A stretch of DNA of 63,622 nt, counting the filler, from Craspedostauros australis (taxonomy: Eukaryota): the NCBI GenBank assembly GCA_030167865.1. It is 12 parts of 12 records of this genome, joined end to end, with 100 filler letters (N's around TTAATTAATTAA, not from the genome) between each part and the next. Parts side by side here need not be neighbours in the genome. Positions count along the whole stretch, not along the records: positions 1 to 11,673 come from JALAGF010005259.1; 11 more parts are not named here. One strand, written 5' to 3'. This document shows, one piece after another, positions 1 through 58,704 of the stretch (positions are counted from its first letter, which is position 1; each line of letters starts with the position of its first letter). Under the pieces are notes generated by a model, which searched no databases, was not told the origin of the DNA, and worked only from the letters and a program-made list of their open reading frames with translations. The position numbers were made by a program, and so were the translations under genes.

Positions 1-170
1 GAGATGGAGATGGAAATGAAGATGGAATGATGTTGGATATTAGGTTAGTGCCATGTCGTGTGATGTCGTGTCATGTCGTGTAATGGTTCGAGAGAGTTGC
101 AAGAGTGGCTATGCCTGGTGCATAGCATAGAGGCGTAGCATATAGCGTGGTAGCAATGATTTGAACGTAC
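1..170 (-). other. 18S spliceosomal-type intron 8, 5' part only
   Basis: GATGATCAG|GTACGT followed by low-complexity non-rRNA sequence to the window edge; acceptor not visible. Confidence 0.82.
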
Positions 171-337
171 CTGATCATCTTCGATCCCCTGACTTTCGAT
201 CTTGATTGATAAAANNNNNNNNNNNNNNNNNNNNNNNNNNNNNNNNNNNNNNNNNNNNNNNNNNTCGATCTTGATTGATAAAAACATCCTTGACAAATGC
301 TTTCGCAGTAGTTCGTCTTCCAGAAATCCAAGAATTT

Positions 338-554
338 CTGTGGAGAGAGGGAAGTTGAATGATGACGAGTTCATGTTATACAGAGTGAAGATGGATAATA
401 TTGTGTGAGTGAATGGTTTCTTGTGTCTGCTGGTCTCGAGATACGGTGCTGTGCGTCGTTATAGTNNNNNNNNNNNNNNNNNNNNNNNNNNNNNNNNNNN
501 NNNNNNNNNNNNNNNTGCAATGTATCGCAATGTATTGCGTAATATAGTACTTAC
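338..554 (-). other. 18S spliceosomal-type intron 7 (contains an N gap, true length uncertain)
   Basis: CAGAGGTG|GTAAGT...CTCTCTCCACAG|AAATTCTTGG. Confidence 0.9.
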
Positions 555-879
555 CACCTCTGACAATGGAATACGAATGCCCCCAACTGTTCTCCTTAAT
601 CATTACCTTAGTGCGCAAACCAACAAAATAGTACCAAGGCCCTATCTTATTATTCCATGCTAAGATATTCAACGGCATAAGCCTGCTTTGAACACTCTAA
701 TTTTCTCACAGTAAATGATGGGCATCCCCTGCACGACAACTGAATGCCACACAGGTTCCACCCAAGGATGGCGACGTCGGCAAGCACAAACACTAAGTGT
801 CAGGCCGCCAACGTCTGCCAAAAATCCAACTACGAACTTTTTAACTGCAACAACATTAGTATACGCTATTGGAGCTGGA

Positions 880-1057
880 CTGTAGTTTCCAAAAGTGACA
901 GAGGGTAAAGTAGAGTAGAGTAGAGTGGAGTAGAGTAGGGTAGATATGGTTGTGTATGTGTGAGTATATGTATGATTGGCTGGCTGATCTATTGGTCCAA
1001 GGCTTCATTCCGAGGATGGCACGCCACCGTGTCACAGATTCTTGGAGTGTTACTTAC
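880..1057 (-). other. 18S spliceosomal-type intron 6 (178 nt)
   Basis: GCGGTAAT|GTAAGT...AAACTACAG|TCCAGCTCC. Confidence 0.93.
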
Positions 1058-1077
1058 ATTACCGCGGCTGCTGGCAC

Positions 1078-1276
1078 CTGTAATTGCAAGGGCAACGATA
1101 GTGGTGATAGTGATAGTGTGTATTGAGAGAAGTCAGTGAATGATTGAAAAAATTTGTTAGTTTGCTTGTTTGTTTTCGGTTCGGTTGATCGCTGCGCGTG
1201 TTGTGCCACGTCAGTTGTTGTTGCTGTTGCTGTTCCTGGTACTGCCGCTGTTACTGTTGCTGTTGCTGTTACTTAC
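1078..1276 (-). other. 18S spliceosomal-type intron 5 (199 nt)
   Basis: GGCAAGTCTG|GTAAGT...CAATTACAG|GTGCCAGC. Confidence 0.93.
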
Positions 1277-1376
1277 CAGACTTGCCCTCCAATTGATCCT
1301 CGATAAGAGATTTAAATTGTTCTCATTCCAATTGCCAGACCTAGAAAGGCCCGGCATTGTTATTTATTGTCACTAC

Positions 1377-1552
1377 CTGAAGTTGTTAGAGATGGGTAAG
1401 GGTGAAGGTAGGGGAGTGAAATGGTGTGTGAATGGGAATGGATGTGTGAGTGGGTGTTGTATATGGTATGTATGTGTATGCATGCTTTTACTATGGATCG
1501 ATGTGATGTGTATCTACTTTGACTTGGTGTGGTCGGTTCAAGTTGTACGTAC
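1377..1552 (-). other. 18S spliceosomal-type intron 4 (176 nt)
   Basis: CGAAGAG|GTACGT...TCTAACAACTTCAG|GTAGTGACAAT; CTAAC motif present. Confidence 0.93.
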
Positions 1553-1613
1553 CTCTTCGTGTCGAAATTGGGTAATTTACGCGCCTGCTGCCTTCCTTGG
1601 ATGTGGTGGCCGT

Positions 1614-1788
1614 CTGTAATTGTTGGAATGTTATTGTGAAAAGAAGGGGAGGATATAATATGTATGTGAGATGATTGATGATTGATTGAGTTGATTGAAT
1701 TAATTGATTTCATGTGAAATCCTTCGTGCACTCCATGTTGACATGTCACGAGATAATAATGAGAAGGCAGGAAAACAAGGAAACGTAC
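1614..1788 (-). other. 18S spliceosomal-type intron 3 (175 nt)
   Basis: CCTGAGAG|GTACGT...CAATTACAG|ACGGCCACCAC. Confidence 0.93.
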
Positions 1789-2076
1789 CTCTCAGGCCCC
1801 CTCTCCGGAATCAAACCCTAATCCNNNNNNNNNNNNNNNNNNNNNNNNNNNNNNNNNNNNNNNNNNNNNNNNNNGTTACCCGTCATCACCACGGTAGGCC
1901 AATAGCGTACCGTCCAAAGTTGATAGGGCAGAATCTTGAATGATCCATCGCCGCCAAAGGCATGCGATCCGCAATCTTATTATGAATCACCACATCACCT
2001 CGAAAGGGTTGGTTTCAATCTAATAAATACCACTCCAGAAGAGTGTTGACGCATGTATTAGCTCTAGAATTACTAC

Positions 2077-2276
2077 CTGTAGTTGTTAGATGTGAGAATT
2101 GAATGAATTGAATGAATTGGGTCAGGGGGAAGTTTGTGTGAGAATCGAGTTTACAGTTTGGGATGAGGTGGGAGTCAAGTCAAAAGACAGAAAGAAAGAA
2201 TGAGACAACAGCATCCGTGGGGAGTGTTGCTCAGTCCTTTGGTCTGTTCGAGATGGGTGCGGTGTGATGAACTTAC
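2077..2276 (-). other. 18S spliceosomal-type intron 2 (200 nt)
   Basis: GGATAACC|GTAAGT...TCTAACAACTACAG|GTAGTAATTC; CTAAC branch-like motif just before the acceptor. Confidence 0.93.
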
Positions 2277-2374
2277 GGTTATCCAAGTAGTAAGGGACTA
2301 TCAAATAAACGAAAACTGATATAATGAGCCGTTCGCAGTTTCAATGTATGATATTTATACTTGCACATGCATGG

Positions 2375-2567
2375 CTGTAGTTATAAGGGTGAAGCGTCAA
2401 GCGTGGTGTGAATGAGTGAAGGGTGGATGGAGAACAGTATTGTGTGAGTGAAAGGAATGAATGCAATGAATAATGCAATGGATGCTGTGGTTCGTATGGT
2501 GTCGACGTAAACGTGTGTGTTGACATGTGTTGACGACATGCGTGCATTGACAAGTATATTGACGTAC
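2375..2567 (-). other. 18S spliceosomal-type intron 1 (193 nt)
   Basis: GATTAAG|GTACGT...ATAACTACAG|CCATGCATG; removal restores GATTAAGCCATGCATG. Confidence 0.93.
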
Positions 2568-2808
2568 CTTAATCTTTGAGACGAGCGTATGACTACTGGC
2601 AGAATCAACCAGGTTGCTATGCTTAGTGCTCTCCGACGGCACCCGCGTCTGCGTGTGCGTACGGATTACAAAATGCAATGCAAATCAGTGATATGATGTG
2701 CTCTCGCATTCTCCCCTGGGCTCCTTCGGCACTTGCGTACCGAGGGAGGATCCGAGTTTGTAAGTAACGAGTTGTTGTTGGTGTTGTTGTTGTTGACGGT
2801 GATGATGT

Positions 2809-3597
2809 TGTTGGAAATCCGGGGTAGTAGTATAGTCTAATTCTTATTAAACTGTACCGTTTTAGAACTGTGAGAACAACATCTTCATTTCTCAATTCCT
2901 CAAGTCGCTTGCCCATGATGATGCCAGTAACGCCCTGTAGTTGCTTCTTCCTTCATCATAGCAATCCTCCTCCGTCATTCACATCTCGTTGTTCATGACA
3001 GGCGCATTTCATCATGCTCGTCCATTGAGGTTTTCTTCTACACTCCTGCAGTGCATGCATGCCGATGCTGAGTTTCATTCTCTCCCGATCAGGCATCCAT
3101 CACTCATTCAGTGCACTCCTCCGTGTTGTTCACTCACTCTTCTCACATGTTCACTGGTGGTCACACTTGGATCAGAACATGGTGTTCTGGCACGATCAAT
3201 CCAGTCCTTCGATGATATTCCAGTCCGCGCTTTGTTCTCCTTCGGCGGTTCTCTCTCAGTCACGTAATCATGTTCTGGGTTCTGAGTGACACAACCTTGA
3301 TAGCGTATTCGCATAGATGTTGGGTTCAACTGGTCAACCATCGTGCTTAGAACACTTTGGTGTTCCAGTCTCCCTTTCACATCCATTGTTCGCCATGTTG
3401 GGGCGTCAATCATCACAAACATGTCACGCCTTTAGTCTGTCCGTCGTCCGTCATACTCTTGACACACAGAGGAGGAAGGTTCACAATTGACTTGGGAGTG
3501 TGTCCGACTTCGGTAGATCGGTCAGTCTAATTTTGGTATTATGGGAGGTGCGGCAATCTGGGATATTACGACATAGTCGCATCCTCGATTCCTGACA
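2809..3597. mobile_element. Solo LTR, family A
   Basis: TGTTGGAAATCCGGGG...GATTCCTGACA ends shared with other copies; flanks TGATGT/TAATGT (6-bp TSD, 1 mismatch). Confidence 0.8.
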
Positions 3598-3662
3598 TAA
3601 TGTTGCCGTTGTCAGTGTTGTAACGTAACAAGACGTAACGAAACGTAACGCGACGTGACATA

Positions 3663-4131
3663 TGTTGGAAATCCGTGGTGGTGGGGATAGTAGAAAGCTA
3701 ATCGTTTGTTTGAATCTACTTCTCTGAACTGTGACCTCTTCATTGCTCTCAACTTCCAAAGTTCGATCTCCTCCTGAGATCTCCATGAGTTCATCTACCA
3801 GTCTAGCATACCCTCATCTTGCATTCATCCTGAATTCACCATGGTCCTGCATGCTCTACCGAGATTCCCATTGTTGGCAAGTTCCGCTCACGGAAGCCTA
3901 CGATCGTGGAAGACGGTGTTGGTTGATAGTCGGTGTGTTTGCTATTTCAATACATTGGGGCTCCGATCCTCTCGCTGTCCGTTCTCTTGCCCGATGCTCT
4001 CGGCGCGTTTGTCTGTTTCGTAGATTGGTCTCCTCTACCTCCGACTATGAGTCGGTACGCGAGATGCTCTCTCGCTACTCTTCTTATTCTCTCTCTCTCT
4101 CTCAATATCGTGTACTCGTGTTACACGATAT
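3663..4131. mobile_element. Nested LTR fragments: family-A-like end (3663-3871) followed by inverted family B fragment (3872 to about 4131)
   Basis: TGTTGGAAATCCG at 3663; TGTTGGCAAGTTCCGCTCACGG at 3872 is the reverse complement of the LTR-B ends at 23634 and 25826. Confidence 0.7.
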
Positions 4132-4581
4132 TAGCTCAAACTAGTTTTCCCATTAGTCGTGTTAAGATTTAGTCTAGTTAGTCAACTGTCCAACAGCTCA
4201 GAGTTTGAGCGGGATTGAAAACGTGACTCGATGTCGGTGGGATGAGGTCCCACCCTCGAATCGTGCTCTACTTAAGACGATGTCGCGTGTCCGCTGAATT
4301 TGGGTTTGGGCGATCGTGCCGTCCCACGCCACTTATGGGCGTGACATGACCTGTCCTGAACGGACAATCGGGTCAAACCGTTGGATGAACCTTGTTCCCC
4401 CAAATTGATCGGAAGAGAGTGAACAACAAACTCTCTCTCCGACAGTCACGAAATTGATGTCTCCTCTCGGAAATGGCAACATCGACACCGCGATGATTGC
4501 ACGTACGGAGACTCAACGCTCCACTATGTTACTACTAATAGAGATGATGCAGATCCAACTATAATGGATGCTGCACATCAC

Positions 4582-5307
4582 TGTTAGGAATTGAGGGTAC
4601 GACTTTGTCGGAATACCCATAATTGCCGCACCTCCCATCATTGTTCGTCACAGCTTTGAATATTANNNNNNNNNNNNNNNNNNNNNNNNNNNNNNNNNNN
4701 NNNNNNNNNNNNNNNNNNNNNNNNNNNNNNNNNNNNNNNNNNNNNNNNNNNNNNNNNNNNNNNNNNNNNNNNNNNNNNNNNNNNNNNNNNNNNNNNNNNN
4801 NNNNNNNNNNNNNNNNNNNNNNNNNNNNNNNNNNNNGACGACGTCGATCAGAACAGCATGTCCATGGGCAAGTGACGCACCTTCTTCAGAGGACAGCACA
4901 TGCCTCTCCTGCGGACAAGATCATCTGCAGGTTTGGAACATCAGAAAGGATCAGAATATCCGCAGGTTTGGAACATCACCAAAGGTGACATCGATCATGA
5001 GACGGCGGTGTCATGAGAATCAACGACGGAAACATGAGATAGGCAAGTGCTCAAGACTGCAGATCCCTACCATGCAAGCGTAGACAGCTACGACGATGCA
5101 GAGACAAGGAAGCAAGAACAGAGCATGATGAACGAAGAGGGAAGCACCTAAGAGACAACAGGATGCCCCGTGTCGTTACCGCGACAGATGCCTGTCAAGA
5201 AAACGAGATCAGAAGAGAAAGTGAGATTGTGCTCACAGTTCTAAAACGGTACAGTTTCTAACAGCAGATTAGAACTTAGTACTAACTATAACCCCGGATT
5301 TCCAACA
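4582..5307. mobile_element. Solo LTR, family A, inverted relative to the 2809 copy
   Basis: TGTTAGGAAT...CCCCGGATTTCCAACA flanked by perfect 6-bp TSD CATCAC. Confidence 0.85.
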
Positions 5308-6129
5308 CATCACATGCTCACAATCCAATTGAAAGTCTCATTTGGATTCGTACAGCTCTAAAGACTAAGACACATTCACACACTCAAACTCACCAACCTA
5401 CTGCACTAGCACGGATTGATCACCCTTCGGCGTTCAGCAAGTTCACCTCGTTTTCATTATCGTTTTATCAGATAATATGATATCCGAGAATCACATACGG
5501 GACTCAACTGGTATCCAAGACAAGAATCGATCGACTCGACGGTATCCGAGAGTCAGACATGTGACACGATCGTATCCGAGACTGAGAAGGATCCCAGAAG
5601 CATAGCTCTACCGCCCCGCACAGTATACTACTTCAAATCGGATCCTGGAGGAGAGGCATGATTGGTTCAAACAGTCCAGCCTACCAATGACACGGATGCA
5701 CGATACATTCAAACCAAAAGAGGAGAAACTTCAGATAGCAACGCGTATGCCGAGCAACTCAATGAAGCAACATCCATACAGAATTACACTCACAATTAGC
5801 AGCACAGTTACAATGCATTCCTAAGTCACTAGTTGTCACCAGAGCCAAGCAGCGTCCTCGTCCAAACCAGGCGAGTCCACTGCTGGGAAACAACATTGCG
5901 ACATAGGGGCCGTAGTCTCGTGTCTCGTGATGCTGGTCACGAAACCAACATCCCTGCCCCCTGCGACATACACGTGTGATTCGCATTCCTGCATTGAGGT
6001 CACGAACGTCACAACCCTGTTCGCATTCGGCACGTGGCGTTCTGCACCGCAAGACGCGTGCAGCTCACATTTTCTGTCACAAAGATCCAAAGTGAGAGTT
6101 GCGGTAATATACCATTTAACAACGATCAA

Positions 6130-6234
6130 CTCTACACTCTTGGGAGGTGCGGTAGTATATCATTTCAAAAACATTCGACTCCCACTATTGGGAGGTGCGG
6201 CAATTTGTCGTTTCAGAACACCCGATTCCTGACA
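6130..6234. mobile_element. Right end of another family-A-like LTR
   Basis: GGGAGGTGCGGCAAT...CCCGATTCCTGACA terminal motif as at 3597 and 22320. Confidence 0.55.
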
Positions 6235-6429
6235 TGCAGGCAGTAAGTTTGGATGTAGTCTGTCCCTAATTGAATTCCAACTCTGATGCTAGATTTCGAA
6301 CATCAAGGTAGGACACCAGACGTTTCTTCAGAGTCTGTCCTTCGGCGAATTGCAACCCGCTCTGTCGGTGTGACACGAAAGCAAGAACGGGAAAAAACGA
6401 AACATTCAAGTTTCGCAAAGTTTGGTTTC

Positions 6430-6545
6430 CAGAATTTGCATCTATGTTTTGAGTATAACGGTCACAACGTCTAGAAAAGAGGAAATGAACCCACGAACTT
6501 CCGCAACAACAACAAGGCACAGAAATCCAATCCGAGAAACCGCGC
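6430..6545. repeat. Dispersed repeat; inverted diverged copy at about 22640-22800
   Basis: AAATGAACCCACGAACTTCCGCAACAACAACAAGGCACAGAAATCC matches the reverse complement of GGATTTCGGTGTCTTGTTCTTGTTGTGGAAGTTCGTGAGTTCATTT. Confidence 0.55.
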
Positions 6546-8217
6546 GCAATCAAGCGGGGCGTGTTCGCACGACTGCAGACACACGCCTGAGGTCGGTTTC
6601 GGGCGTTTTGCTGTGGGTCCGTCTGAGAGGGCACAAAAGACGATTTTCGCCGCTCGCCGACGTCCAAGTTGAAGACAATGACGAGTCGCACCCATGTCCG
6701 AGTGAAAGCTAAATATCTAAAGCACGGGCGACTGCGGGAGATTTCTCAACTCAAACTCTCGTAACTTACAAAATAAACAGTTTAAGCATTCTAGGAAGGT
6801 CAATCCGCATCTTATTCATAGAGAGGAACATCATATTAAACTTAGAAGTAAATCTGGGAGGGCTTCCCGAGAAATGTGTCACATTTTCGCTCGATCGAGT
6901 CATAGAATAAACAACAACGGCAACGGAGAACAAAAGCAACACAACACCACCAGAACCGACACAGCCAAACACCAACTCCCTCTCTCTTTCTCTTTCTGGA
7001 GAGAAACACAAGGACAACGCAGATGATGGCGAAGGTCTCCTCTTTCCGACGTGCCGATGATGTGTTGAAGATGATGCACACTTCGGATCAACATGCGTGT
7101 GGGACACAGCAAGTTTGCGCAGAACGTTGCATTGAAGGGTGCATGAAGCATTTGGCGCAGAAGTATCGAGCATGAAGCGCGAAGTAGACCCAACAGATTC
7201 CGTTTGCCATCATGGGCAGTCAGATTTATTGGATCAGTCTCACTCGACCGTGCCCCTGCCATCAAGATCGACTTGAAGATGCAATAAATCACCATGTTGC
7301 GATCGGATCTGTGCCTCTTCCGTCTGGGGTTGGAATTTCATCTGAGTTGAAGCCCAAGTTGACCGGCTGGCCATGTGGGAACGCTGCACACGAGTACTTT
7401 GCAGGTGGTTCGTTGTCTGGGCAAAAAAAAAAAACACTGTTCGTTTCGCGTTTCCGTGAACACGCAAGATGTACTCCGTGTTGGCATGGTACGTCAAATG
7501 CGAGAACAAAATACTCTGCATTGGTGGAATTTATTGTCAGGGGTGAGCAACTACCACCTGTTTCCGATGTTACCTCAAGTACATTGGAATACCGTCGAAT
7601 GTCATCAGGGGCTGAAAAAGTCTTCGGTTGATTCGCTGGTACTGGGGAAGGAGAAGACGGACAAAATTGGTGGAAGATGAAATCGAGGTAGAAGCAGAAC
7701 AGGTTGGGGGTTGCTTCGTGGCACTACTCGTAGCCCTTACGCTTGCCCTAATTCCCGGGAATGCAGGAATAGCGTCACTAGAAGGAACAAAGCTAATCAC
7801 TCTACGAGGTCCTCCACGTGACGAGCAATGGACGCGATGTGCTCATGGATGCGAGCGATTCATTGGCGACAACGCCTGCGCTCCCGTCGATCTCGAGCAG
7901 CCATCATACCGTATCCTGGACAGCTCAACGATCAGGTCGCCGTCATCTTGGTTGCTGCCAGTTAAGGGTCGCTGGCTCTATCATCTTCAACACATCGCGT
8001 CATCGTGCAGAGAGCAGAGAGCAAGGCATGGATTCAGTATGGCAACATTATCATCACCCATACGGTTACCGGCATCGATGACAGCGATGAAGATCGTTGC
8101 GTCGCGTCGCGTCCAAACCAAATCCAAACCAAAGGCTCACAATTCCAATCTGGATCATCCTCGCACGCATCTGCAATATCAAGAAAACACAACCAACACG
8201 GAATCAACCAGCCAACC

Positions 8218-10648
8218 ATGATCGCACCTTCGACCATCATCGATCGTCTCATCGGCCTCGTGTCGCTCGCTTGCCTCATGTTTGCGAGTGGCAGCAAAGG
8301 TGTCCAAGCCGCCGCCAACACCGACCAGGGAGACTCGGTAAGTGAATTTTCAGACATACTGTCCGGTGCGAGGATACAAGTCTTGGGTATGGCAGTTGCG
8401 ACTTCCAGCTGGTTGCTGGTGCTGGTGCTGATGCTATGCCTCTCCCATCTATCTTCGAGGAAGGGATCCGTTTAAATTGCACGGTATGTCTATTCGCATA
8501 GTCCTTCTCACGCATAGAATGAGCCAATCCGTCACCTTTGTTCATCTCCTCATTTTGCACTTGCGCACCGCAACCATCCAAACGACTCTGCCACAGAGCA
8601 ACTCATACAAGGCATGCACCCCAGAAGAAGCCAACCTCGTCTTCCCAGGCTTAACTGCGGCGATCTCGGCGCGCAAAGGAGTGATCGAGATGGTGTGGCC
8701 CTCTGCGGAGTTCCATGACCCCACCGACAACTTCGCACACGAGGAGTGCCACGACATCGTGCACGAAGTCTTCATCGTGGAGGGTATCGTGAACTTTACG
8801 GAGCTCTTACTTGATGACCTTCGTGCGAATGAGTCCGTGCATAACCATGAGACCACCGACCTTATCCACACCGCTGAGAACCTCAAGCATGGAGTCAACC
8901 ACAGCGCACTCGTCATCGCCAAAGTTGGTGATGACTGGGTGTCTTCGAACCGAGAGAGCCGTACGTTGAAGGTCTCGACAGCAGACCCTGTGTTGAACCA
9001 ACATAACGTGACCTACTTGGAAGAAGACACGGAGTTTGTGCGGCATGTGAAGCACAGCGACGGGGTCTCGATGATCTTTCCAGCAAGCCAAAGCGGAAAT
9101 TTCGAGGAGGGAGACTGGATCACAGGCCAGGACATGAACGGCGAGCCTTACATCGTCAAGCTGCTGTCGTCAACGAAACCAGAAAGCACGAGCGGCGACT
9201 CCAGCAAAGGCATCGTCGTCTGGAAGGTGATGGATGGAACCCTTGCGGATATTTACGAGCGCCTCGACATGTCTGCGTCCGTGAAGGTCCCTGAAAATCC
9301 AGGAGATACTGATAGCCTTGGTGGCAGCGGTGGCGTGCTACAGTCTCGCATGGACCATATGGCAGCTGCTCAGCACGGTTTCCATTTTGACAAGAGCAAA
9401 AGCATTGGGCCCGTCGACATCGCCTATTCAGGTGATGTCGGCCTTTGGCTGGATTATAACGTGGACATGGGGATTCTCCCCGTTCATCTTGATGCGTGGG
9501 CTTCAGTCGAAGCCGTCCTCGAGCAAACAGCATCCCTCACGATTCAACAAACCCTCGCAAAAAACTTCAACAGAACCATCTCGCTACATGATTGGCAAGG
9601 CACATGGGTCACGTTTTTCGTGGGCGGAGCTCCTGTGTCTGTCAAAGTCACCCCCATCACCAAGGTGATCGTCAACGCCACGGCCACACTGGAAGGAGCT
9701 TTCGGAGTGTCTGCTTCGTCGCAAGACATGTATAGGTGGGAAGCTCAGTACGAGTTGAAGAAAGGATGGAGTTCGAAGATGATCAGTTCAAAGCCAGAGA
9801 GAGACTTCGACTACAATATCAGCGCCAGTGCATCCCTGGACCTTTACGGGGGATTGCAACTGGGAGTTGATCTGAAGGTGTACGGGCTTCTGCAGATGTC
9901 TCCTTTCATCGAGGCTGGACCTGATCTTTCCATTGGGGCCGCAAGCACCCCCAAAGCGCTGTTGTCGTTGTCGGAGAATAATTCTTCCATCAAGCAACTC
10001 TTCCACTTCACCAAATTCAACGCAGGCGTCAAATACGCGATTGGGGTGACTGTGGGAATTGATGCTACCCTCAAGATCCTCGGTAAGACAGTCATCGGGT
10101 TCAACCCCCATCGTACCTTTAAGCGTCAAAGACGCAAGACCCTCTTCGAGCTCCCCACCGCAAAACTCATGATCACGGAGTATCAGAGCTGTGCAGGAGA
10201 TGACGCTATACGGCTCACAGCAGAGATGCATGGGCACGATTACGATGGCTGGCTCTCAAACACGCTCGAGAGTGAATACGACAGCGCCATCGCACCATCA
10301 GACCATTGGACGGTTAAAAAAGAGGGAAATGATCCTGCAACTGTGAGCTTGGCATTGAAACGTTCAGCCATCGAGGATGTCGGCTTCTTCCGGCTTCCTG
10401 AGGATGGTGAGGTTCTCTACTTTGCGACTGGCGCAACCATTCCTCCTCTTCCGTTTTCTTATCTTCTCTTTGAGCATGATCTGGAGAGCATCGAAGGGAT
10501 GCCGGACATGAAGAAGTTTGACTGTTGCGATGATTCTGACTGTGCCAACAAGCGCGACAAGATTGCGGGGAGCCCAGATCGTCCCGTTTGTCGAGATTAC
10601 AAGTGCACCAACATCGAAGTGGATTCCAATTCCAGTTCTGAATTGTGA
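8218..10648 (+). CDS. Secreted hypothetical protein, about 723 aa, two exons (8218-8337, 8597-10648); beta-rich, C-terminal Cys cluster
   Basis: Exon 1 encodes signal-like MIAPSTIIDRLIGLVSLACLMFASG; the phase-0 intron GTAAGT...CCACAG joins in frame to the 683-codon ORF. Confidence 0.82.
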
Positions 10649-11717
10649 AGACCTGCATTACGAAAGGCTTGCTCTTGAACCTGAACCGATCACATCGAGT
10701 TTTCGCACTCGCACCTGTACTCTACTTACTTGTATTTGTATTGAGCTATTGATGGTCCGCCTGGGATTGTCGACGAATAGCGGGAATCGCCATGCCACAC
10801 CACACCATACGATACATTTGAAGATTTGCAGAGTCCTAGAGCACGATCACACCACATACGCATTGCAGTTGTAGTTACAGTTTCAGTTTCAGTTATAGTT
10901 TCAGTTTCAGTTTCAGTTACAGTTATAGTTACAGAGACAGTGACAATTGTATAATAGCTATCAACAACCTCCGTGGCTCTACTTTGTTCTGTCTCCAGAG
11001 CGAGTGTGTGTAGGGTATTGTTTTTGCGAAATTGTTCCCAGCAAGGCTCGATGGCTCCCTTGGAAGTGCGGTAGGCACTTCATGCACCCTGAAGCCCCCT
11101 TCACTCAAGAACAGGGTGCACTCAACAAACTGCGATCGCAAATGAAGGCGATAAACCCCATGTAGGAGGCATCTTACCGACCATGCAGGGCAACCCAAAG
11201 AACAACCGGACATGAAAGGAAAAGCGTGCCGCGCATACCACGGGTAGAGAGAGGCAAATTCACACCCAAGGAACCACGCAACAGCGACGCCACACAGAAT
11301 GAGCTCCCATCACAATGGGCGTTCTGAGGATCTACCAACAAGTGCCAAGCAAACATGCCTCGGGTGGAGAGCATCTGTTAATTATCGTGGCACGAGTACG
11401 CGCTCGGCTCTGATGGGAATAGTTTCAAACAGGAATAGAAAACCCTGAAAAGAAGAACTCTCACATCCACAATAGCAAGGGCAAAGACGACTTTGTTCAA
11501 TGAACACTTTTGAACAACACTCTACGAGTATGCTGACGGTCTTCGCTGCGTCGATTTCACATGTTGGAGAAGCGCAGGTGGAGAATATTCGTATTACATT
11601 ACTACGTTACGTGTCCAAAAGTCTGCGCATCCTTTTGGATTCAGGGTCTGACATTGACTTGTCGGGGGGGGGGNNNNNNNNNNNNNNNNNNNNNNNNNNN
11701 NNNNNNNNNNNNNNNNN

Positions 11718-11729
11718 TTAATTAATTAA
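11718..11729. other. Artificial contig-join linker TTAATTAATTAA within N-runs (also at 13403, 15012, 20331, 25274, 28142, 35274, 38398, 40268, 47552, 62329)
   Basis: Identical 12-mer giving stops in all six frames, always flanked by about 44 Ns. Confidence 0.97.
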
Positions 11730-11773
11730 NNNNNNNNNNNNNNNNNNNNNNNNNNNNNNNNNNNNNNNNNNNN

Positions 11774-17570: not shown

Positions 17571-20285
17571 TTAGAGTTCTTGACAGGCTGATGGGGATGG
17601 TCCAGGGCAGTCTGTGGCTGCATCGTCAATTACGTACGTTTCTGTCGCTGACGTACACAGTGATCCTTGGGCGCACTTGGTGCAGGAGGCGGCTGTCGTG
17701 CAGACTCCTGTTCTGATGATGATGTCATTGGCTGCACTGATACTTTCGCCAAGTTGGGAACACGTGCTCTCGCCCGAGCAGGCATCATCTTCGATGATCA
17801 CGCTTCCTTCATATTTGTTCGTTGAGCGATGCAATCTGAGGCAAGCACTCCCCTTTTGGCACGCATTCTTTCCGATGAAGACACTTGCCACGATCGGCGT
17901 CTGGGGTGGAGACAACTGTTGCCTTTTGCGCACCGCAAGGCCAAAGCATGAAAATGCTTCATCACATGATCCTTCTTCCACTCGCATATTTCCAAATGTG
18001 TTACTTCCAATCCCACTGCAACTCTGCTCTGCAACACAAGCTCTTGGTCCGATCACACTGAATCCGACTTCGATACCAGCAGCTGGCTTACTTAAGAAAT
18101 AGTGCAGTTGAAAACAGGCATTGTCTCCCTTGCAACTGTCAAGGATGATTGCGTTGGGATGTACCCAAAAGCAAGCGTCTTTTCCGGTACACGACCTTGA
18201 GCTCACCGTCGTGACACCACTATTAGAAGGGTCGGTGATGCAAGCATTATCACCGGTGCAGCATTCCACACCGCATGCCTTCGTCACCACAGGCCCGCTG
18301 CCAGTGAAGAGCTTCTTGCCCTCGTCCACGATGGCCAACAATGCGGTGATCACATTTTCGTCGTTCTTGATCTTGTTAAAGCGTGCCTGCGCCACCTCCA
18401 CCATCACGGGCTGTGGAGGGTCTGCATCATTGCATCCAAAGATGCTCTTGATCATCTTGCGCTTCCCTTCAGCCAGAGCATCAACCATGGAGACGAAGTC
18501 CGCGCATGTGCCTGTTGCATCATCGCACAATACATCGCCAGTGACGGAATTGAACATTGTTGTGTGGTCACCCGGTTTTTCGAGACATCCTACGGTGAAG
18601 GATGCCGGGGGGGGAAGCGTCGGACTACTTGTTCTTGTAGGCAGTTGCGAAGGCTGTGAGCTTGTTGATGGCATGTCAGATGGTTGGGTGGATGGGAGTG
18701 CGGATGGCTCCTCGGACGGCTGTACGGAAGGCTGTACGGACGGAAGGTTGGTGGGCTGTTCGGTCGGCTCTTCAGTCGGAAGGTCGGAGGGCTGTGCAGA
18801 CGGCACCTCAGACGGGACTTGCGATGGACTGCTTGACGGGAGTGAGCTCGGGATATCTGACGGCATCTCAGACGGAACTTGCGATGGACTGTGTGACGGA
18901 AGATATGAGGGCGTCCGAGACGGCGAGTTGGATGGGGCGCTGGTTGGACTGGACGTGAGAGGTGTTGGGAAAGGAGTTGGAGAGAATGTCGGACAGTCTG
19001 TGGGCAAGGTGTCCTTGCCAATACAGTACTCCTCCACTTTGTCACCAGTAGGATTGCCCCCAGAGCTGCTGCCTCCCTTTGGGCAGGCCCCGTCCACGTT
19101 GCTGATGAAGTAGAATTCATTAGGGCTGCACTCCGTCTTCGTCATGCATCCTCTGCAGCCTTCGAAACTGCCGCATCCATCAGGAGGGACAATGATATCC
19201 GTCCTCATCCTGTCACTGAAGCCCATCTTCTCGCATGAGCCATCAGCAGCGCAACCACCAGCACCAATGGTCAGGCTGCCTGCAGCCTTGCCACCAGCAC
19301 CATGGTTGACAGTGGAATGGGCATCCTTGCAGGCGTTGGCGCCTACGCACGCATTCGGGCCAATGTCGATGTGGCTGCGGAAGCGATATGATGGTGCTGA
19401 TTGCTCCACACGGCGGCCAGTGGAGTTGCATGCCTCTGACCCAACGCATGCACCAGAATGGATAGTCACATCACCATGGGAGCGGCGTCCCACTCCCTCG
19501 CAAGAGTGAGGAGTGGTGCATGCCATCTCACCGATGAAGGTGACTCCTGTGATGGACGGATTGATTTCATTTTCGTTCATCAACTCGCATGCGCTGTCTC
19601 CAGTGCAGGAGGAATCGAGAATGAGCGGGTTGGGGCCCATATCCTTGCATGCGCTGCCGCCAGTGCATGATGTGATGGCGACGGTCATGAATGGAGGAGA
19701 GATGGAGGCGGAACCGGTGACTGAGGTGCATCCAGAGGATCCTTGGCAGCATGGGTCTGCGACAGGAGGCGATTGCATCGCAGCGATGGCCGCGCATGCT
19801 GCCTTCATTGCGTCTGGTCGTTCGGTGACGAGGATTGCGTTGGTGGCAGCGACCACGGCCAATTGGCCAGCAAGCACGTCGCTGGATGCGTACTTGTTGA
19901 AGAGCTTGCGTGCAGCTCCTTCACCGAGGTCTCCGGCGCACGCGAAGAAGTTCTGCAGTTGCTCGGATTCCTTGACAGCGCTGATGGCTTCGCGGCAGGA
20001 TGGCTTGGCAGAGTTGCAGATGATGGTCTTGGCGCTTACCTCTTGCTGTGTGAGGGCGGTATTGCCATCCGGCTTGCAAATGACCTTGACGGTAGAATCA
20101 AAGACCACTGGGGCAGCTGATGGTTTGGCAGTTGGCAGGAGCGTCGGTTGAGAGGTCGGCAACGCGGTTGGCTGAGCGACAGGTGCCATCGAGGGCATCT
20201 CCGAAATCAAGCCTGTTGGCGGCCCAGTAGGCAATGCGGTTGGCGCGGTTGTTTCTGCAACAGCCGGGTTTTCAGTGGGTGGCAC
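17571..20285 (-). CDS. Cys-rich/PTS-mucin extracellular protein, 5'-partial (>904 aa), two homologous Cys-repeat modules
   Basis: Long ORF with PT/PS linkers and repeated (S/A)CxGxxAC motifs in two blocks; runs into the gap at 20287. Confidence 0.85.
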   Translation of the reverse strand: MPPTENPAVAETTAPTALPTGPPTGLISEMPSMAPVAQPTALPTSQPTLLPTAKPSAAPVVFDSTVKVICKPDGNTALTQQEVSAKTIICNSAKPSCREAISAVKESEQLQNFFACAGDLGEGAARKLFNKYASSDVLAGQLAVVAATNAILVTERPDAMKAACAAIAAMQSPPVADPCCQGSSGCTSVTGSASISPPFMTVAITSCTGGSACKDMGPNPLILDSSCTGDSACELMNENEINPSITGVTFIGEMACTTPHSCEGVGRRSHGDVTIHSGACVGSEACNSTGRRVEQSAPSYRFRSHIDIGPNACVGANACKDAHSTVNHGAGGKAAGSLTIGAGGCAADGSCEKMGFSDRMRTDIIVPPDGCGSFEGCRGCMTKTECSPNEFYFISNVDGACPKGGSSSGGNPTGDKVEEYCIGKDTLPTDCPTFSPTPFPTPLTSSPTSAPSNSPSRTPSYLPSHSPSQVPSEMPSDIPSSLPSSSPSQVPSEVPSAQPSDLPTEEPTEQPTNLPSVQPSVQPSEEPSALPSTQPSDMPSTSSQPSQLPTRTSSPTLPPPASFTVGCLEKPGDHTTMFNSVTGDVLCDDATGTCADFVSMVDALAEGKRKMIKSIFGCNDADPPQPVMVEVAQARFNKIKNDENVITALLAIVDEGKKLFTGSGPVVTKACGVECCTGDNACITDPSNSGVTTVSSRSCTGKDACFWVHPNAIILDSCKGDNACFQLHYFLSKPAAGIEVGFSVIGPRACVAEQSCSGIGSNTFGNMRVEEGSCDEAFSCFGLAVRKRQQLSPPQTPIVASVFIGKNACQKGSACLRLHRSTNKYEGSVIIEDDACSGESTCSQLGESISAANDIIIRTGVCTTAASCTKCAQGSLCTSATETYVIDDAATDCPGPSPSACQEL

Positions 20286-25329: not shown

Positions 25330-28097
25330 GTCAGAGCAGGAGGCGAAGATCCGATGACCGAAGGACATCAGCATCATGGATACAGAAGGTGAACTTCAAA
25401 TGGCGAGTACTCACGGAGTAGGAGCCAGTACTGAATGAACGGAGTGTCAAATATGGAGTACGTATCGAACACGGAATATCGTGCGCGACGAGCACACGAT
25501 GTTGAGAGAGAGAGAGAATACAGAGAGGAGCGAGAGAGCATCTCGCGTACCGACTCATAGNNNNNNNNNNNNNNNNNNNNNNNNNNNNNNNNNNNNNNNN
25601 NNNNNNNNNNGAGAGAATACAGAGAGGAGCGAGAGAGCATCTCGCGTACCGACTCATAGTCGGAGACTGAATCTACAAAACAGATTGAAGCACCAAGAGC
25701 ATCGGGCAAGAGAACGGCGTATACCGAGAGGATCGGAGTAGCCAACTAATGAAATAGCAAACAGACGACTATCAACCAACACCATCTTCCACGATCGTAG
25801 GTTACCGTGAGCGGAACTTGCCAACACGTTTATAAACGATAGATCAGGGCGAGCCTGTGGATCGGATCGTGCGAGGAAGACGAACATCATTCAAGAGCAG
25901 CAGGCTGAATGAGCGAGGAAGAGGAATTGAGAGACATCCCTCTGTCCAACCCGACTATCAAGCAAGAAGAAGGTGCGAGTGAGACTCCACCATGAGAAGA
26001 GAAGGAAGTAGCAGCGGCTACTGTCCTATCAGGCGAAGACGCAAGCGCCATCGACGAGACCGAAGAGGAACAGTCTGCAAGGCAACATCGCGAGAAGGAG
26101 AGGATTCTCAAGGCGATCAAGCAAGAGGAGACTGGTGTGACGAAGAGCATTCGCACAGCCAAACGAAGTGGGAAAAGTGAGACACCACCAGGAGGAGAAT
26201 TTGTGACGAAAACAATCTCCGCGCAACAACAGGCGAAAACCGAAAAAGTGACAACACAGAAACAAACGGAAATCAAGGGCGCGAGCGCACCAACAACGCA
26301 ACAACGAATCAACATGGCGACATCAGCCAACATGAACAAGCGACGCATCAAGGCGCCGATGTTCAACGGTGAACAGGAAGACTATAGCGCATGGGAGTCC
26401 CAAGCGAAGGCATACGCTTGTGCACAGAAGACGAGAGACGTGATGTTGGGCAAGACCAAGGTGCCAACAGTGAACGAGATCGCGGCAGCCGCCGGTGAAG
26501 CCAAGGAAGCGATGGAAGAGATCTACGAGCTGGGATGTGATTGCTTCAGCGATCTGATCCTCATGATGGATGCAGAGAAAGGAAAAGGCAAGCAGGCCAT
26601 CCAATACATCAACCAATGCATCTCTGACGACTACCCCGAAGGAGACGCACACGCAGCGTGGAACGTTCTCGCGGAGAAGTTTCGACCATCCGACGCGGCG
26701 ACAAAGATCAAACTCAAGCGCCAATTCAACAACGAAAAGATGAAGAGAGACTCGGACCCAGACATCTACATCACATGACTCGAGGGTCTACGCTCGCGTC
26801 TTCACGATGTCAAGTACGAGATCACAGACGAGGAAATGATCATGCAAATCCTCAGCACGGTGAGCAACGAGTACAGTACACACATCGTGAACTTCCAACA
26901 TCAACTCACGTACAATCCGGAACTGATTACCATCAACACGATCAGAGGAGTACTCTGCACTGCATACGCCACTCACAAAGGAGGCAAAGCGTACGTCGAC
27001 GACTTCCAAGACAGCAACACGAAGAGCAACGACACTGGCTTCACGAGCACCAGTAACTTCAAGGGTACTTGCCACAACTGTGGCGTGTATGGTCATAGAT
27101 CCGCCGATTGTCCAGAACGCAAGAAATCGAACAACAAGAAAAACAACAACAACAAGATGAACGGAAAGCGCAACAACAATCGCAACAACAACCGCAACAA
27201 GGGAAGCGGCTTCAACGGGAAGTGCAACTACTGTGGCATCTTCGGACATCGCGAGGCGGAGTGCCAAAAGAAGAAGTTCAACGAGAAGAAGAAGAACAAC
27301 GAACAAGCCAACGCGGCAACGGAAGGACACGACAAGAGCGGGCACGAGATGGTACTCTTGGCGAAAGACATGCTGCTCTGCATGTTGGTGTCCGACGACT
27401 ACATTGAAGACTCCTTCTTCGATAACTTCGAATACGTCGGAAGTGACGACGAAGTACAGGACGATGAGATCGTTCCTGAGTGGCTCAGTGAGGAGCCAAT
27501 CATCCACGAGGTGGATCCAAGACGCGAAGTGAGCTACAAATGCTGCTTCAACGCGCACGACCTGATCGGTCCATACGGCGACGGAGCTGAGATGGGCAGC
27601 GAGGCCAACGATAGCGACATCGAAGAGGCAATGAGCGAAGACAACGAGGACGCCGACGAGAACGGCTCAGACAAAGACGCCGACGAGGACAGCGCAGATG
27701 GAGACGACGACGACACCATCAGAGACGGGGCGAACCGCGCCGAGGCGCCGCCTCCCCCAGCAATGCGAAACGAGAGAACGGGCATCTTCGATGAAGAGGA
27801 CAGCGACGAAGCTGAGGACCGTCCAAGCGATACGTTCAATCCGTATGAACACGTCGTCTATCCAATCCGAATCCAATTCCCACCGGAACCAAATCCCAGA
27901 AGAGTCGACGACATCTACCGACTCCAGACCTTCCCGGAACCAACGGTCACTGCAAAACGAATGCAGAAGCAGCTCATCTACGATGCGGTTCTAACAGCTG
28001 CATTACCAATGTTCCCAGGGTTCGTGAACGAACCACTGCGATACATTTGGGTGAACATGGTAAGCACCATCCTATCCGATAACTTCAAATCAATTGA
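25330..28097 (+). mobile_element. Ty1/copia 5' portion: LTR-B (to 25826) and gag pseudogene (from ATG 25909; in-frame stops at 25993 and 26776)
   Basis: Gag-like APMFNGEQEDYSAW...AWNVLAEKF; two CCHC knuckles CHNCGVYGHRSADC and CNYCGIFGHREAEC. Confidence 0.88.
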
Positions 28098-28197
28098 NNN
28101 NNNNNNNNNNNNNNNNNNNNNNNNNNNNNNNNNNNNNNNNNTTAATTAATTAANNNNNNNNNNNNNNNNNNNNNNNNNNNNNNNNNNNNNNNNNNNN

Positions 28198-35229: not shown

Positions 35230-35329
35230 NNNNNNNNNNNNNNNNNNNNNNNNNNNNNNNNNNNNNNNNNNNNTTAATTAATTAANNNNNNNNNNNNNNN
35301 NNNNNNNNNNNNNNNNNNNNNNNNNNNNN

Positions 35330-38300: not shown

Positions 38301-38353
38301 AGCGGCCCAACATCTGGACCAACCAGCGGACCAACTTCGGGACCAACCTCGGG
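35330..38353 (+). CDS. Mucin-like protein fragment: about 200 GPTS tetrapeptide repeats around a Cys-rich globular domain (about 37170-37610); both ends in gaps
   Basis: The GPTS frame reads through into the non-repetitive domain CVDPDG...ECAEFTNV...AECVD...CEACSLP...YYFDVPC. Confidence 0.9.
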
Positions 38354-38504
38354 NNNNNNNNNNNNNNNNNNNNNNNNNNNNNNNNNNNNNNNNNNNNTTA
38401 ATTAATTAANNNNNNNNNNNNNNNNNNNNNNNNNNNNNNNNNNNNNNNNNNNNTGCACCCTCGCCACAGTCCTGTACGCAGTGGCAACCCCAACCCACAC
38501 ATCT

Positions 38505-42054: not shown

Positions 42055-43074
42055 ATGTTTTTGAGTCCAAACACTGTTCTCACGCTCGGGCTTCAGCTGG
42101 TGGGGATTCAACACACCGAACAAACATCAAAACGCACTCTTGTCAAACTCTTCCGACAACATTACGGTTCCAATCCGCTTGATGTTGCCGAGATCTGGTT
42201 TGACTTGTGTCATACGACGATCTCTGAAGCTGCGATTGGCACGAAAGAGCAAACAATGAAAGGGTTCACATTCTATATGATTGCTCTCTATTATCTGTGG
42301 CTCTATCCAAAGAACTCGGGCGTCATCGTTTCCCGTTTCGGTATCTGTGAGCGGTATGCCCGAGGCGAAGCANTTTGGAACTGGATCAAACGCATCGCAG
42401 CATTGCGCGCAAAGAAGATCGTCTGGACCAAGTCGTTGGACCACCCCAATTCAGCCATTTTCGCAGTGACGGTTGATGGCACTGATTTCCGCACGTGGGA
42501 ACCCAAGCACCCAACACTGCCAGTGGACCGAGCGCAGTTCTCTCACAAATTTAATCATNNNNNNNNNNNNNNNNNNNNNNNNNNNNNNNNNNNNNNNNNN
42601 NNNNNNNNGGAACCCAAGCACCCAACACTGCCAGTGGACCGAGCGCAGTTCTCTCACAAATTTAATCATGGCGCGGTGAAGTACGAGATCGCAATTTCGG
42701 TCTTCACATCAAAATGCGTTTGGATCAACGGTCCATTTCCAGGCGGAACACATGACAGAACCATCTTCCGCCAAGGTCTCAAGGACAAAATCGCAAGAGG
42801 CAAATTGGCCATCGCCGACCGGGGATACCAAACAAGCGAACCCAACGAACGCAAAAAANTGTCATTGCCAAGCGGCACAGATTCGNGACACCTCGCCAAG
42901 TTCAAGAGCCGAGCTCGTTGCCGACANGAGAGCTTCAACGGTCGGATCAAAAAATTCAAGATCATGGATGACACCTTTCGCCACGGTCACCAGTGCCATG
43001 TACACGCCTTCGAAGCTGTGTGTGTGATTCTGCAGTACCAAATGGACAACGGGTCTGAATTGTTCGCAGTGTAG
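42055..43074 (+). mobile_element. PIF/Harbinger-superfamily (DDE_Tnp_4-like) transposase
   Basis: VDGTDF, SHKFNHGAVKYEI, WINGPFPGGTHD, IADRGY and RxESFNGRIKKF give a D-D-E triad; repeated CATTAATGAGAAA subterminal-like motifs at 43321-43393. Confidence 0.9.
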
Positions 43075-53013: not shown

Positions 53014-53092
<79 letters not shown>

Positions 53093-57510: not shown

Positions 57511-58704
57511 CTAGTAACGTCCTCGACCTCCGCCTCGTCCGAAGCGCCCAGGCGACCTTCCACCTCGCCCCCCTCTGCCGCCGAAGCCCGATCTACCAAA
57601 CCCGCCTCGGCCGCGTCCTCCTCTTCCACCGCCTCGCCCACCTCCTCGACCACCTCCTCTTCCACCTCCTCGACCACCACGTCCGCCGCCTCGCCCGCCA
57701 CCACGACCACCTCCCGACCCACCAGGATTCGTAAATCGAGATAGCGGCAACAGTTTGTCTGTGCCAATATACACCAAATCATTGGGTTGAAAGCTCTTGC
57801 TCAGGACTCCAGGGTCTGTCTTTATCGTGAAGAAGACTTCGGTGGTCTTGCCAAGGATTTCATCGACCTTGCCGATCTTGCGTTTGTTCTCGAGATAAAT
57901 GCCGGCATTGAAGTACGGAACTTTCTCAGAGAGTGTCCATCTACACACTAGGTCAGCCTCGGCATCGTGAAGAACCGATCCAGCCTCTGGTCACCGAGCG
58001 GGCATTAGTTTTGCAGGGTGACACCAGCGCAGTGAATCGGCATGCCATCGAATAAAAACATCACAGAGAATCGAACGAGAAGAGGAATGTGATATTGCGC
58101 GAGGATCAAGCGTGCGATTTTGGGTATTGGTGGGGATGCGGTAACGTACCATGCGTGATATCAGTTGGCACGCACGAAAGTTTGGTGGGGGATGTTGAGG
58201 TGTCATGTTGATGTGAGTGTAGGAACATAAATATTATTGGATGTATTGCAGATGGCGAAAGTCATCGAGTAGGTATGGATGTAAACAGGAGTGTGGCTCG
58301 TAGTCGAGTGGAGTCGAGTCGAGTATTAGTCGAGTGGGGGACGCGACATTGATACATGTGTTCCATATGAGCAACGACAGCCTGCTGGAGAACACTGGCC
58401 GCCGCCGTTGTTACGCATCAGATTGAGCAAGGAAGACGGTGAAGCACTCTCGTGTTTTCGTGCACAATCAAAAAGACCATTCTGTGTGACGACAAACGAA
58501 CGATGAGTGATCGGAATACGGGGCTTGGGGTATGGCAACGGCAACATCAGGGCAACGACACAGCCATCGCGGAAACGCACCAACTATCTCCGCGGGCGGT
58601 CCTTCATCGCGGAATGATCTACCACCGCGTCCGCCTCTGCCGCCACGACCTCCGCGACCTCCGCGGAAGCCTCTTCCGCCGCCTCTGCCTCCTCTGAAAC
58701 TCAT
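57511..58704 (-). CDS. GAR1: H/ACA snoRNP subunit GAR1, 199 aa, two exons (58704-58581, 57986-57511)
   Basis: RGG boxes at both ends; core [12 protein letters not shown]...[25 protein letters not shown]...[14 protein letters not shown]...CAG phase-1 intron restores the frame. Confidence 0.96.

Follow-up and report, generated by a model that had tools for sequence, protein, structure and literature searches.

Probable spliceosomal introns in the 5' part of a nuclear 18S rRNA gene from a putative diatom

The stretch of DNA analysed here (the window, 63.6 kb) opens with the 5' part of a nuclear 18S ribosomal RNA (rRNA) gene that is interrupted by eight inserts. Judging from the ends of these inserts, their composition and the gene that their excision rebuilds, we consider them likely to be genuine U2-type (GT-AG) spliceosomal introns of a diatom's nuclear 18S rRNA gene, in which case ribosome production at this locus could depend on the spliceosome.

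Structure of the interrupted gene and signals of its introns

The gene was identified with Rfam, whose eukaryotic small-subunit (SSU) family, SSU_rRNA_eukarya (RF01960), matches positions 169..2615 with 407 bits (E 1e-119), places the 5' end of the gene at 2615 and is the sole family that reaches its gathering score across the whole 63.6 kb; with cmscan, the SSU covariance model also matches 189-900 with 169 bits. An earlier note on this DNA had located the gene at 1..2615, and these coordinates are correct, but the gene lies on the minus strand. Its exons agree with the eukaryotic SSU model, with few non-canonical pairs (cmscan), and all eight intron sites lie in conserved core segments. In the numbering of the spliced gene, corrected for gaps and counted by hand from the covariance-model alignments and the computed introns, these sites fall at about 48, 146, 387, 448, 548, 568, 893 and 991. 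Exon 6, with its 20 nt, is a piece of a universally conserved 18S loop region. The coordinates of all features are collected in Table 1.

Excision of the inserts in silico restores the expected 18S spacing, because the extra length at the sites in the cmscan alignments is the intron length: 207-7=200, 179-4=175, 189-13=176, 396-19=377=199+178 and 220-3=217. At the I1 site the figure is 203-8=195, with four columns deleted; it matches the 193 nt of this intron only approximately, the aligner having misplaced a few columns. The earlier claim that removal restores the canonical 18S is thus correct in spacing at sites I2-I7, while I1 fits roughly.

The state of the assembly conditions how these features can be read. 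Eleven spacers of the form N44-TTAATTAATTAA-N44 join at least 12 separate contigs, the first at 11674-11773 and the others at 13359, 14968, 20287, 25230, 28098, 35230, 38354, 40224, 47508 and 62285, and because the window is a chain of joined contigs, only 1-11673 is physically linked to the ribosomal DNA (rDNA). Inside the gene there are three scaffold gaps of 50 N, at 215-264 (exon 8), 466-515 (I7) and 1825-1874 (exon 3), which inflate the assembled lengths of the two exons. The gap at 215-264 is bordered on each side by an identical 19 nt, so the contig ends overlap and the collapsed exon measures about 98 nt, a normal length, and at 1825-1874 the model expects about 3 nt (59 versus 12 positions). 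Such breaks in plain exon sequence suggest that the rDNA copies differ, or might conceal a ninth intron. Runs of 44 N and 50 N are contig linkers and scaffold gaps, and the suggestion that a repeated conserved gene lies behind them was rejected.

Table 1. Features of the window (positions along the whole stretch; G, percentage of G on the sense strand; box, the shared intron motif described in the text)
Feature	Position	Strand	Length	Details
Nuclear 18S rRNA gene, 5' part	1..2615	minus	spliced ~990 nt	Rfam RF01960; 8 introns; extends past window start
Exon 1	2568..2615	minus	48 nt	
Intron 1 (I1)	2375-2567	minus	193 nt	GTACGT...CTACAG; G 10%; CTCACACA box 2441-2448
Exon 2	2277..2374	minus	98 nt	
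Intron 2 (I2)	2077-2276	minus	200 nt	GTAAGT...CTAAC(-13)...CTACAG; G 10%; box 2135-2142
Exon 3	1789..2076	minus	288 nt as assembled	includes 50-N gap 1825-1874
Intron 3 (I3)	1614-1788	minus	175 nt	GTACGT...TTACAG; G 9%; CTCACATA box 1663-1670
Exon 4	1553..1613	minus	61 nt	
Intron 4 (I4)	1377-1552	minus	176 nt	GTACGT...CTAAC(-13)...TTCAG; G 7%; box 1443-1450
Exon 5	1277..1376	minus	100 nt	
Intron 5 (I5)	1078-1276	minus	199 nt	GTAAGT...TTACAG; G 15%; (CAA/CAG)n-like 5' part; no exact box
Exon 6	1058..1077	minus	20 nt	micro-exon between introns of 199 and 178 nt
Intron 6 (I6)	880-1057	minus	178 nt	GTAAGT...CTACAG; G 13%; box 957-964
Exon 7	555..879	minus	325 nt	includes V4 variable region
Intron 7 (I7)	338-554	minus	217 nt as assembled	GTAAGT...CCACAG; 50-N gap inside, so length provisional; box 402-409
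Exon 8	171..337	minus	167 nt as assembled	includes 50-N gap 215-264; true length ~98 nt
Intron 8 (I8)	1-170	minus	first 170 nt only	GTACGT donor; rest cut off by window start
Upstream spacer (5' external transcribed spacer, ETS, and intergenic spacer)	2616..6218	minus		inverted and direct sub-repeats
Gar1 (H/ACA snoRNP) gene, two exons	57514-58704	minus		Pfam and diatom homologues; contig other than that of the rDNA
Gar1 exon 1	58704..58581	minus		N-terminal glycine-arginine-rich domain
Gar1 intron	57987..58580	minus	594 nt	phase 1; GTGCGT...CTAAT (~27 nt before acceptor)...CAG; G 18%
Gar1 exon 2	57986..57514	minus		second glycine-arginine-rich stretch at its end

The ends of the inserts follow a strict pattern. 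Four donors are GTAAGT and four GTACGT, all eight being GTRNGT-like; a random insert would open with either hexamer at p = 2/4096, so their presence at eight of eight sites is not due to chance. The seven complete introns, of 175-217 nt, all end in CAG (CTACAG in three, TTACAG in two, TTCAG and CCACAG in one each), and 6 of the 8 sites have G as the exon base next to the donor (binomial p 0.005 at 26% G), as would be expected for splice-site contexts. Ahead of the acceptor runs a tail rich in pyrimidines and A and free of AG, with the last internal AG lying 82-153 nt upstream, and the 3' halves of the introns hold between 1 and 9% G. CTAAC stands at -13 in two of the complete introns (I2 and I4), and six of the seven have AAC or AAT at a distance of -7 to -9. 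These counts agree with the earlier note, which had described eight inserts starting with GTAAGT or GTACGT, seven of them complete, 175-220 nt long and ending in CAG, with CTAAC just upstream of the acceptor in two.

The inserts also differ from the exons in composition and in predicted folding. On the sense strand G accounts for 7-15% of the introns versus 26% of the exons; among 190-nt windows taken elsewhere in the window, mean G is 26% and just 1.3% lie at or below 15%. The minimum free energy per nt is -0.03 to -0.13 kcal/mol in introns versus -0.12 to -0.33 in exons, and the fold z-scores of the introns against shuffled sequences range from -1.25 to +0.48, hence without excess stability; the inserts are predicted to be unstructured. 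A permissive Rfam scan of positions 1-3200 on both strands (E<=1) found the SSU model alone and no group I, group II or other RNA family, so the inserts contain neither the P3-P8 core of group I introns nor a group II core; the six-domain structure of group II introns, with its domain V, gave no match in inserts of 175-217 nt whose z-scores are near 0. The lack of obvious group I core motifs, described in the earlier note, is therefore borne out by covariance models. That note had also called the interiors microsatellite-like, which holds outside the ends and the box described below, and mutually unrelated, which holds for their overall alignment (MAFFT, mean column identity 42%) but not for that box.

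The element common to several introns emerged in an unbiased k-mer count as the exact 8-mer CTCACACA, present in five of the eight, a number reached in 2 of 500 dinucleotide-preserving shuffles, and as the 9-mer ACTCACACA, present in four, which none of 500 such shuffles reached. A looser pattern, YTCACRYA (hereafter the CTCACAYA box), occurs in six of the eight introns, always 57-85 nt from the 3' end, and has 7 occurrences in the ~122 kb (both strands) of the remaining window and none in exons; this looser count is post hoc because the box was first spotted by eye, and the CA-richness of the introns inflates its matches. Since this short box is common to the introns, their interiors are not wholly unrelated. 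It fits the loose branch-site pattern YTNAY and could be a distant branch site, the alternative being a branch close to the acceptor, which might use CTAAC at -13 or AAC/AAT at -7 to -9.

Proposed splicing, host and competing explanations

RNA polymerase I (Pol I) makes rRNA in the nucleolus, and spliceosomes normally act on Pol II transcripts. In the route that we propose for this gene, the rDNA unit would be transcribed into pre-rRNA, U1 would recognise the GTAAGT or GTACGT donors, the branch site would be provided by the CTCACAYA box shared among introns, 57-85 nt before the acceptor, or by the CTAAC at -13 in two introns, and the acceptor would be the first AG after the long AG-free, G-depleted tail. 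Exon ligation would then yield a normal 18S rRNA, with the 20-nt micro-exon included. Their composition further suggests that G depletion would keep the introns unstructured and nearly devoid of internal GT and AG, and that such interiors would prevent misfolding with the rRNA and the use of cryptic splice sites. Removal by the major spliceosome is a reasonable inference because yeast with a lichen spliceosomal intron in all its rDNA copies correctly removes it from Pol I transcripts, at a growth 4.4-6 fold slower (PMC8527467).

The host appears to be a diatom nearest the raphid pennates, as suggested by one protein encoded on another contig, Gar1 of the H/ACA small nucleolar ribonucleoprotein (snoRNP). 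The best named relatives of Gar1 are diatoms, at 73-83% identity, led by raphid pennates: identity is 83% to Bacillariaceae sp., 81% to Nitzschia inconspicua, 79% to Amphora and 78% to Epithemia, against 67% to a centric diatom and 67% to a brown alga. The donor of the Gar1 intron, GTGCGT, has C at +4 like the four GTACGT donors of the rDNA, and its acceptor is CAG. Compared with the rDNA introns it is longer (594 nt), less G-poor (18%) and devoid of the exact box; as the single mRNA intron defined by homology, it is too narrow a sample of this genome for the rDNA introns to be called typical or atypical.

Several points weigh against reading the inserts as working spliceosomal introns of a diatom. 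The textbook CTAAC is present in only two of the seven complete introns, and the box proposed in its place would be an unusually distant branch site, first found by eye in introns that are rich in CA. The diatom assignment comes from Gar1 alone, on a different contig of the chain, and the likeness to host mRNA introns has one example behind it, which differs in length and composition. Finally, of the three scaffold gaps in the gene two fall in exons, and these may reflect differences between copies.

Among the other explanations, a common origin of the introns is compatible with their being spliceosomal, and we hold it to be possible though rather doubtful. Instead of eight independent gains, there would then be diverged copies of one rDNA-specific lineage, spread within the gene by reverse splicing or in an introner-like manner, which would account for their narrow length class of 175-217 nt, their common base composition, the constant distance of the CTCACAYA box and the RMAAYTWCAG-like 3' ends of six out of seven. 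These shared features could equally be functional splice signals, and beyond the box and the ends no alignable similarity was found, the column identity being the 42% given above and the only blastn match among the introns one of 30 nt at 83% between I1 and I7. Neither terminal inverted repeats nor consistent target-site duplications were seen at the eight introns, and blastn with all eight across the 63.6-kb window gave low-complexity matches only and no intron copies elsewhere.

A second explanation, which is unlikely in our judgement, holds that the intron-bearing unit is minor or silent, that 18S rRNA comes from intron-free copies and that the introns are tolerated passengers. Intron presence or absence differs within individuals according to Gaonkar et al. 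2018 (PMC6306197), heterogeneity of this kind appears in the title of Han et al. 2018, as cited there, for Olifantiella, and assembly breaks such as the two in exons of this gene (215-264, with its 19-nt overlap, and 1825-1874, where about 3 nt are expected) occur where copies differ. A decaying copy should, however, carry exon damage, whereas the exons here show no damage and agree with the SSU model; introns should also be lost through conversion by intron-free copies, and those found here cannot be aligned with one another (42% mean column identity) bar the one box. In Chaetocerotaceae, moreover, the sequences that genomic PCR recovered were the intron-bearing ones (PMC6306197).

Removal, or retention, of the inserts by a route other than the spliceosome seems very improbable. 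It would involve degenerate introns of group I or II with protein assistance, for which lichen rDNA offers a parallel with its many degenerate group I introns unable to self-splice (PMC8527467), or spacers that are excised without ligation to leave a fragmented 18S. It is opposed by the lack of any group I or II match at E<=1 and of excess folding, and by a size of 175-217 nt with 7-15% G that cannot form a ribozyme core, and it leaves unexplained why 15 of 15 junctions keep strictly to GTAAGT/GTACGT...CAG. No nuclear 18S is known to include a separate rRNA piece of 20 nt, which counts against the fragmented form of this explanation. An assembly artefact, with foreign or misjoined sequence in a collapsed rDNA contig, is barely credible in spite of a fragmentary assembly (63.6 kb with 11 contig linkers and numerous 50-N gaps) and the difficulty of assembling rDNA from short reads, because none of the 15 junctions touches a gap, four of the introns stand complete within the uninterrupted block 516-1824, and misjoins would not give precise GT...AG inserts that restore the gene at eight sites.

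Other features of the window and public sequence scans

The upstream spacer has a palindromic layout, with a 60-nt inverted pair at 3538-3597 / 4582-4641 (82%) and a second one of 31 nt at 2849-2879 / 5227-5257 (97%), and at 6087-6218 it contains three direct copies of a unit that includes GGGAGGTGCGG; these repeats may act as promoters or enhancers in the rDNA spacer. Rfam found no RNA families in 2600-11700, so there is no linked 5S gene and no 28S end of a preceding unit in this interval. On the plus strand of 2760-2940, antisense to the 5' ETS, a segment starts with GTAAGTAAC, nine bases with which I5 and I6 also begin, and continues with a (GTT)n run and, about 180 nt on, with ...TAAC...CTGTAG; it is intron-sized, not G-poor, and may be due to chance.

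Pfam searches of 13 and then 85 open reading frames (ORFs) of the window yielded Gar1 as the only conserved protein gene. A first model of Gar1, with an ATG followed by GTACGT at about 58148, was rejected, as its homologues show an upstream exon with the glycine-arginine-rich domain and a donor at 58580. A search of the window for further mRNA introns, by way of G-poor windows with donors, gave no convincing case. On the minus strand of 52957-53192, GTAAGT at 53192 precedes a long (TTTC)n microsatellite, and ...ACAG comes about 190 nt later, a size and style like those of the rDNA introns, and the flanking reading frames are not joinable with confidence.

The remaining features lie on other contigs. 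Positions 35250-38400, about 3 kb, are made up of tandem 12-nt units (similar to AGCGGACCAACA) with several open frames, including ORFs of 530-904 aa, and would be either a low-complexity repeat protein or a satellite. The ORF at 42055-43074 (+) encodes a DDE_Tnp_4 (Harbinger-type) transposase domain (E 3e-12) and that at 26836-28149 (+) a CCHC zinc knuckle (E 3e-7), which suggests that both are remnants of mobile elements. Two long ORFs on the minus strand, 17571-20285 (904 aa) and 49418-52261 (947 aa), begin with PT-repeat regions (PF04886, E 9e-12 and 6e-21), and one of them has a weak DUF7640 match too. The ORF at 53513-54838 gave no usable match in the ESM Atlas.

In public data, a 24-nt stretch specific to the V4 region had no matches among metagenome contigs, and exon 6 with its donor had none among metagenome contigs or genome contigs, so neither relatives nor intron-free forms were recovered there. 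Words of the block 516-1824 were sampled in 19 public runs: the fraction present was 0.63 in one run, whose RNA or DNA nature is guessed, and 0.14-0.15 in 16 runs of RNA type or guessed as such, while two further runs, of the study to which the best one belongs, had next to none. These figures carry no evidence of expression, habitat or splicing.

Published rDNA introns and meaning of the locus

The precedent in diatoms that the earlier note mentioned does exist: for the 18S gene of the centric family Chaetocerotaceae, Gaonkar et al. 2018 (PMC6306197) report 17 spliceosomal and 2 group IC1 sites, and one species carries 11 inserts (10 spliceosomal and one group I) whose combined length exceeds that of the gene itself. 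The consensus reported there consists of GTAAGT (GTDHNN), a variable region, YTRAC, a CT-rich tract and YAYAG (YNHAG), over 96-199 bp, and in this paper splicing is assumed, not shown. The published diatom cases rest on PCR sequences. The introns described here share with those of the Chaetocerotaceae their GTAAGT-type donors, variable interior, CT-rich tract and YAYAG acceptor, as well as their number per gene and their sites in the conserved core; all eight donors fit the published consensus, and the acceptors fit YNHAG in seven of seven cases and YAYAG in six. Because of this fit, their kind is not new.

Differences from the Chaetocerotaceae concern signals, sizes and sites. The box is YTCAC here and YTRAC there, with YTRAC at -13 in only two of seven introns here, and the lengths are 175-217 nt here versus a typical 96-199 nt. 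Five sites lie 0-6 nt from listed ones (~387 versus 385/386, ~448 versus 442/443, ~548 versus 548/549, ~893 versus 888-892 and ~991 versus 989/990), the numberings being nominal and not aligned, whereas those near 48, 146 and 568 have no counterpart in the table of that paper. In the first ~990 nt there are eight introns here, against at most four inserts in any of the Chaetocerotaceae taxa tabulated. The target of the primer Ch-690F, which their introns #5-7 disrupt, spans the I7 site here, and the V4 reverse-primer site of this gene has two misfits and is absent from the misfit taxa and variants listed for that paper. The host, furthermore, would be a pennate if Gar1 is a guide, whereas the Chaetocerotaceae are centric.

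The conserved rRNA segments in which the introns described here lie are also interrupted by nuclear group I introns of rDNA, for example at the classical SSU site next to I5. In Chaetocerotaceae the group IC1 site 549/550 is one nt away from the spliceosomal site 548/549 (PMC6306197). Group I introns of this kind are ribozymes of at least 400 nt with a conserved core, whereas the inserts here are GT-AG and show neither an Rfam match nor excess structure.

Within the pennates, Gaonkar et al. (PMC6306197) cite Han et al. 2018 for spliceosomal rDNA introns in the pennate diatom Olifantiella. The likeness to Olifantiella sp. would thus extend to the pennate lineage, which Gar1 suggests for our host, in addition to the spliceosomal introns in diatom rDNA. 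Going by its title, the work of Han et al. (J Phycol) is said to deal with heterogeneity in intron presence and absence among the rDNA copies of Olifantiella sp. Outside diatoms, Bhattacharya et al. in 2000 reportedly described spliceosomal introns in ascomycete rDNA. The lichen introns (Cladonia grayi, PMC8527467) are, like those described here, ectopic introns of spliceosomal type in Pol I genes, and they require the spliceosome and are absent from the mature rRNA; they are few per gene, with 57 bp in the one used as a model, and stand alongside many degenerate group I introns, whereas at least eight introns of ~190 nt are found here, with no group I intron in the part of the gene seen. The idea that ribosome production may depend on the spliceosome, with the unusual link between rRNA transcription and splicing that the earlier note drew from it, is likewise not new, as it is discussed for lichens and modelled in yeast (PMC8527467). 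Of two further papers, one deals with organelle group II introns only (PMC8070900) and the other makes a general statement only (PMC11646303). The arrangement is rare but published, and its dense packing, micro-exon, G depletion and shared box are worth recording.

A far-reaching extension of the spliceosomal reading, which we put forward as no better than a tentative and rather unlikely conjecture, is that dense spliceosomal introns occupy all or nearly all rDNA units of this pennate-type diatom: the first kilobase would hold at least eight, and 18S and 28S together probably well over a dozen. They would form an rDNA-specific class, marked by G depletion, an AG-free tail of 80-150 nt, the CTCACAYA box as distant branch site and a 20-nt micro-exon, that would have spread within the gene through reverse splicing, and spliceosomes would process these introns on Pol I transcripts at the flux of ribosome production. 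If this were true, no natural case of ribosome biogenesis dependent on the spliceosome would be more extreme than that of the host, which could be used as a model.

The introns also break common primer sites for 18S barcoding, including the V4 forward-primer site, which spans exons 6 and 7, so the organism would be missed or mis-sized in DNA metabarcoding. Since Pol I and the spliceosome normally work apart, natural genes that unite them are rare test cases, and a genome-assembled locus with at least eight introns per kilobase would be a good system in which to set the pace of splicing against ribosome production. It would equally suit the questions of how a 20-nt exon is defined and whether introns inside a folding rRNA need to be G-poor and unstructured.

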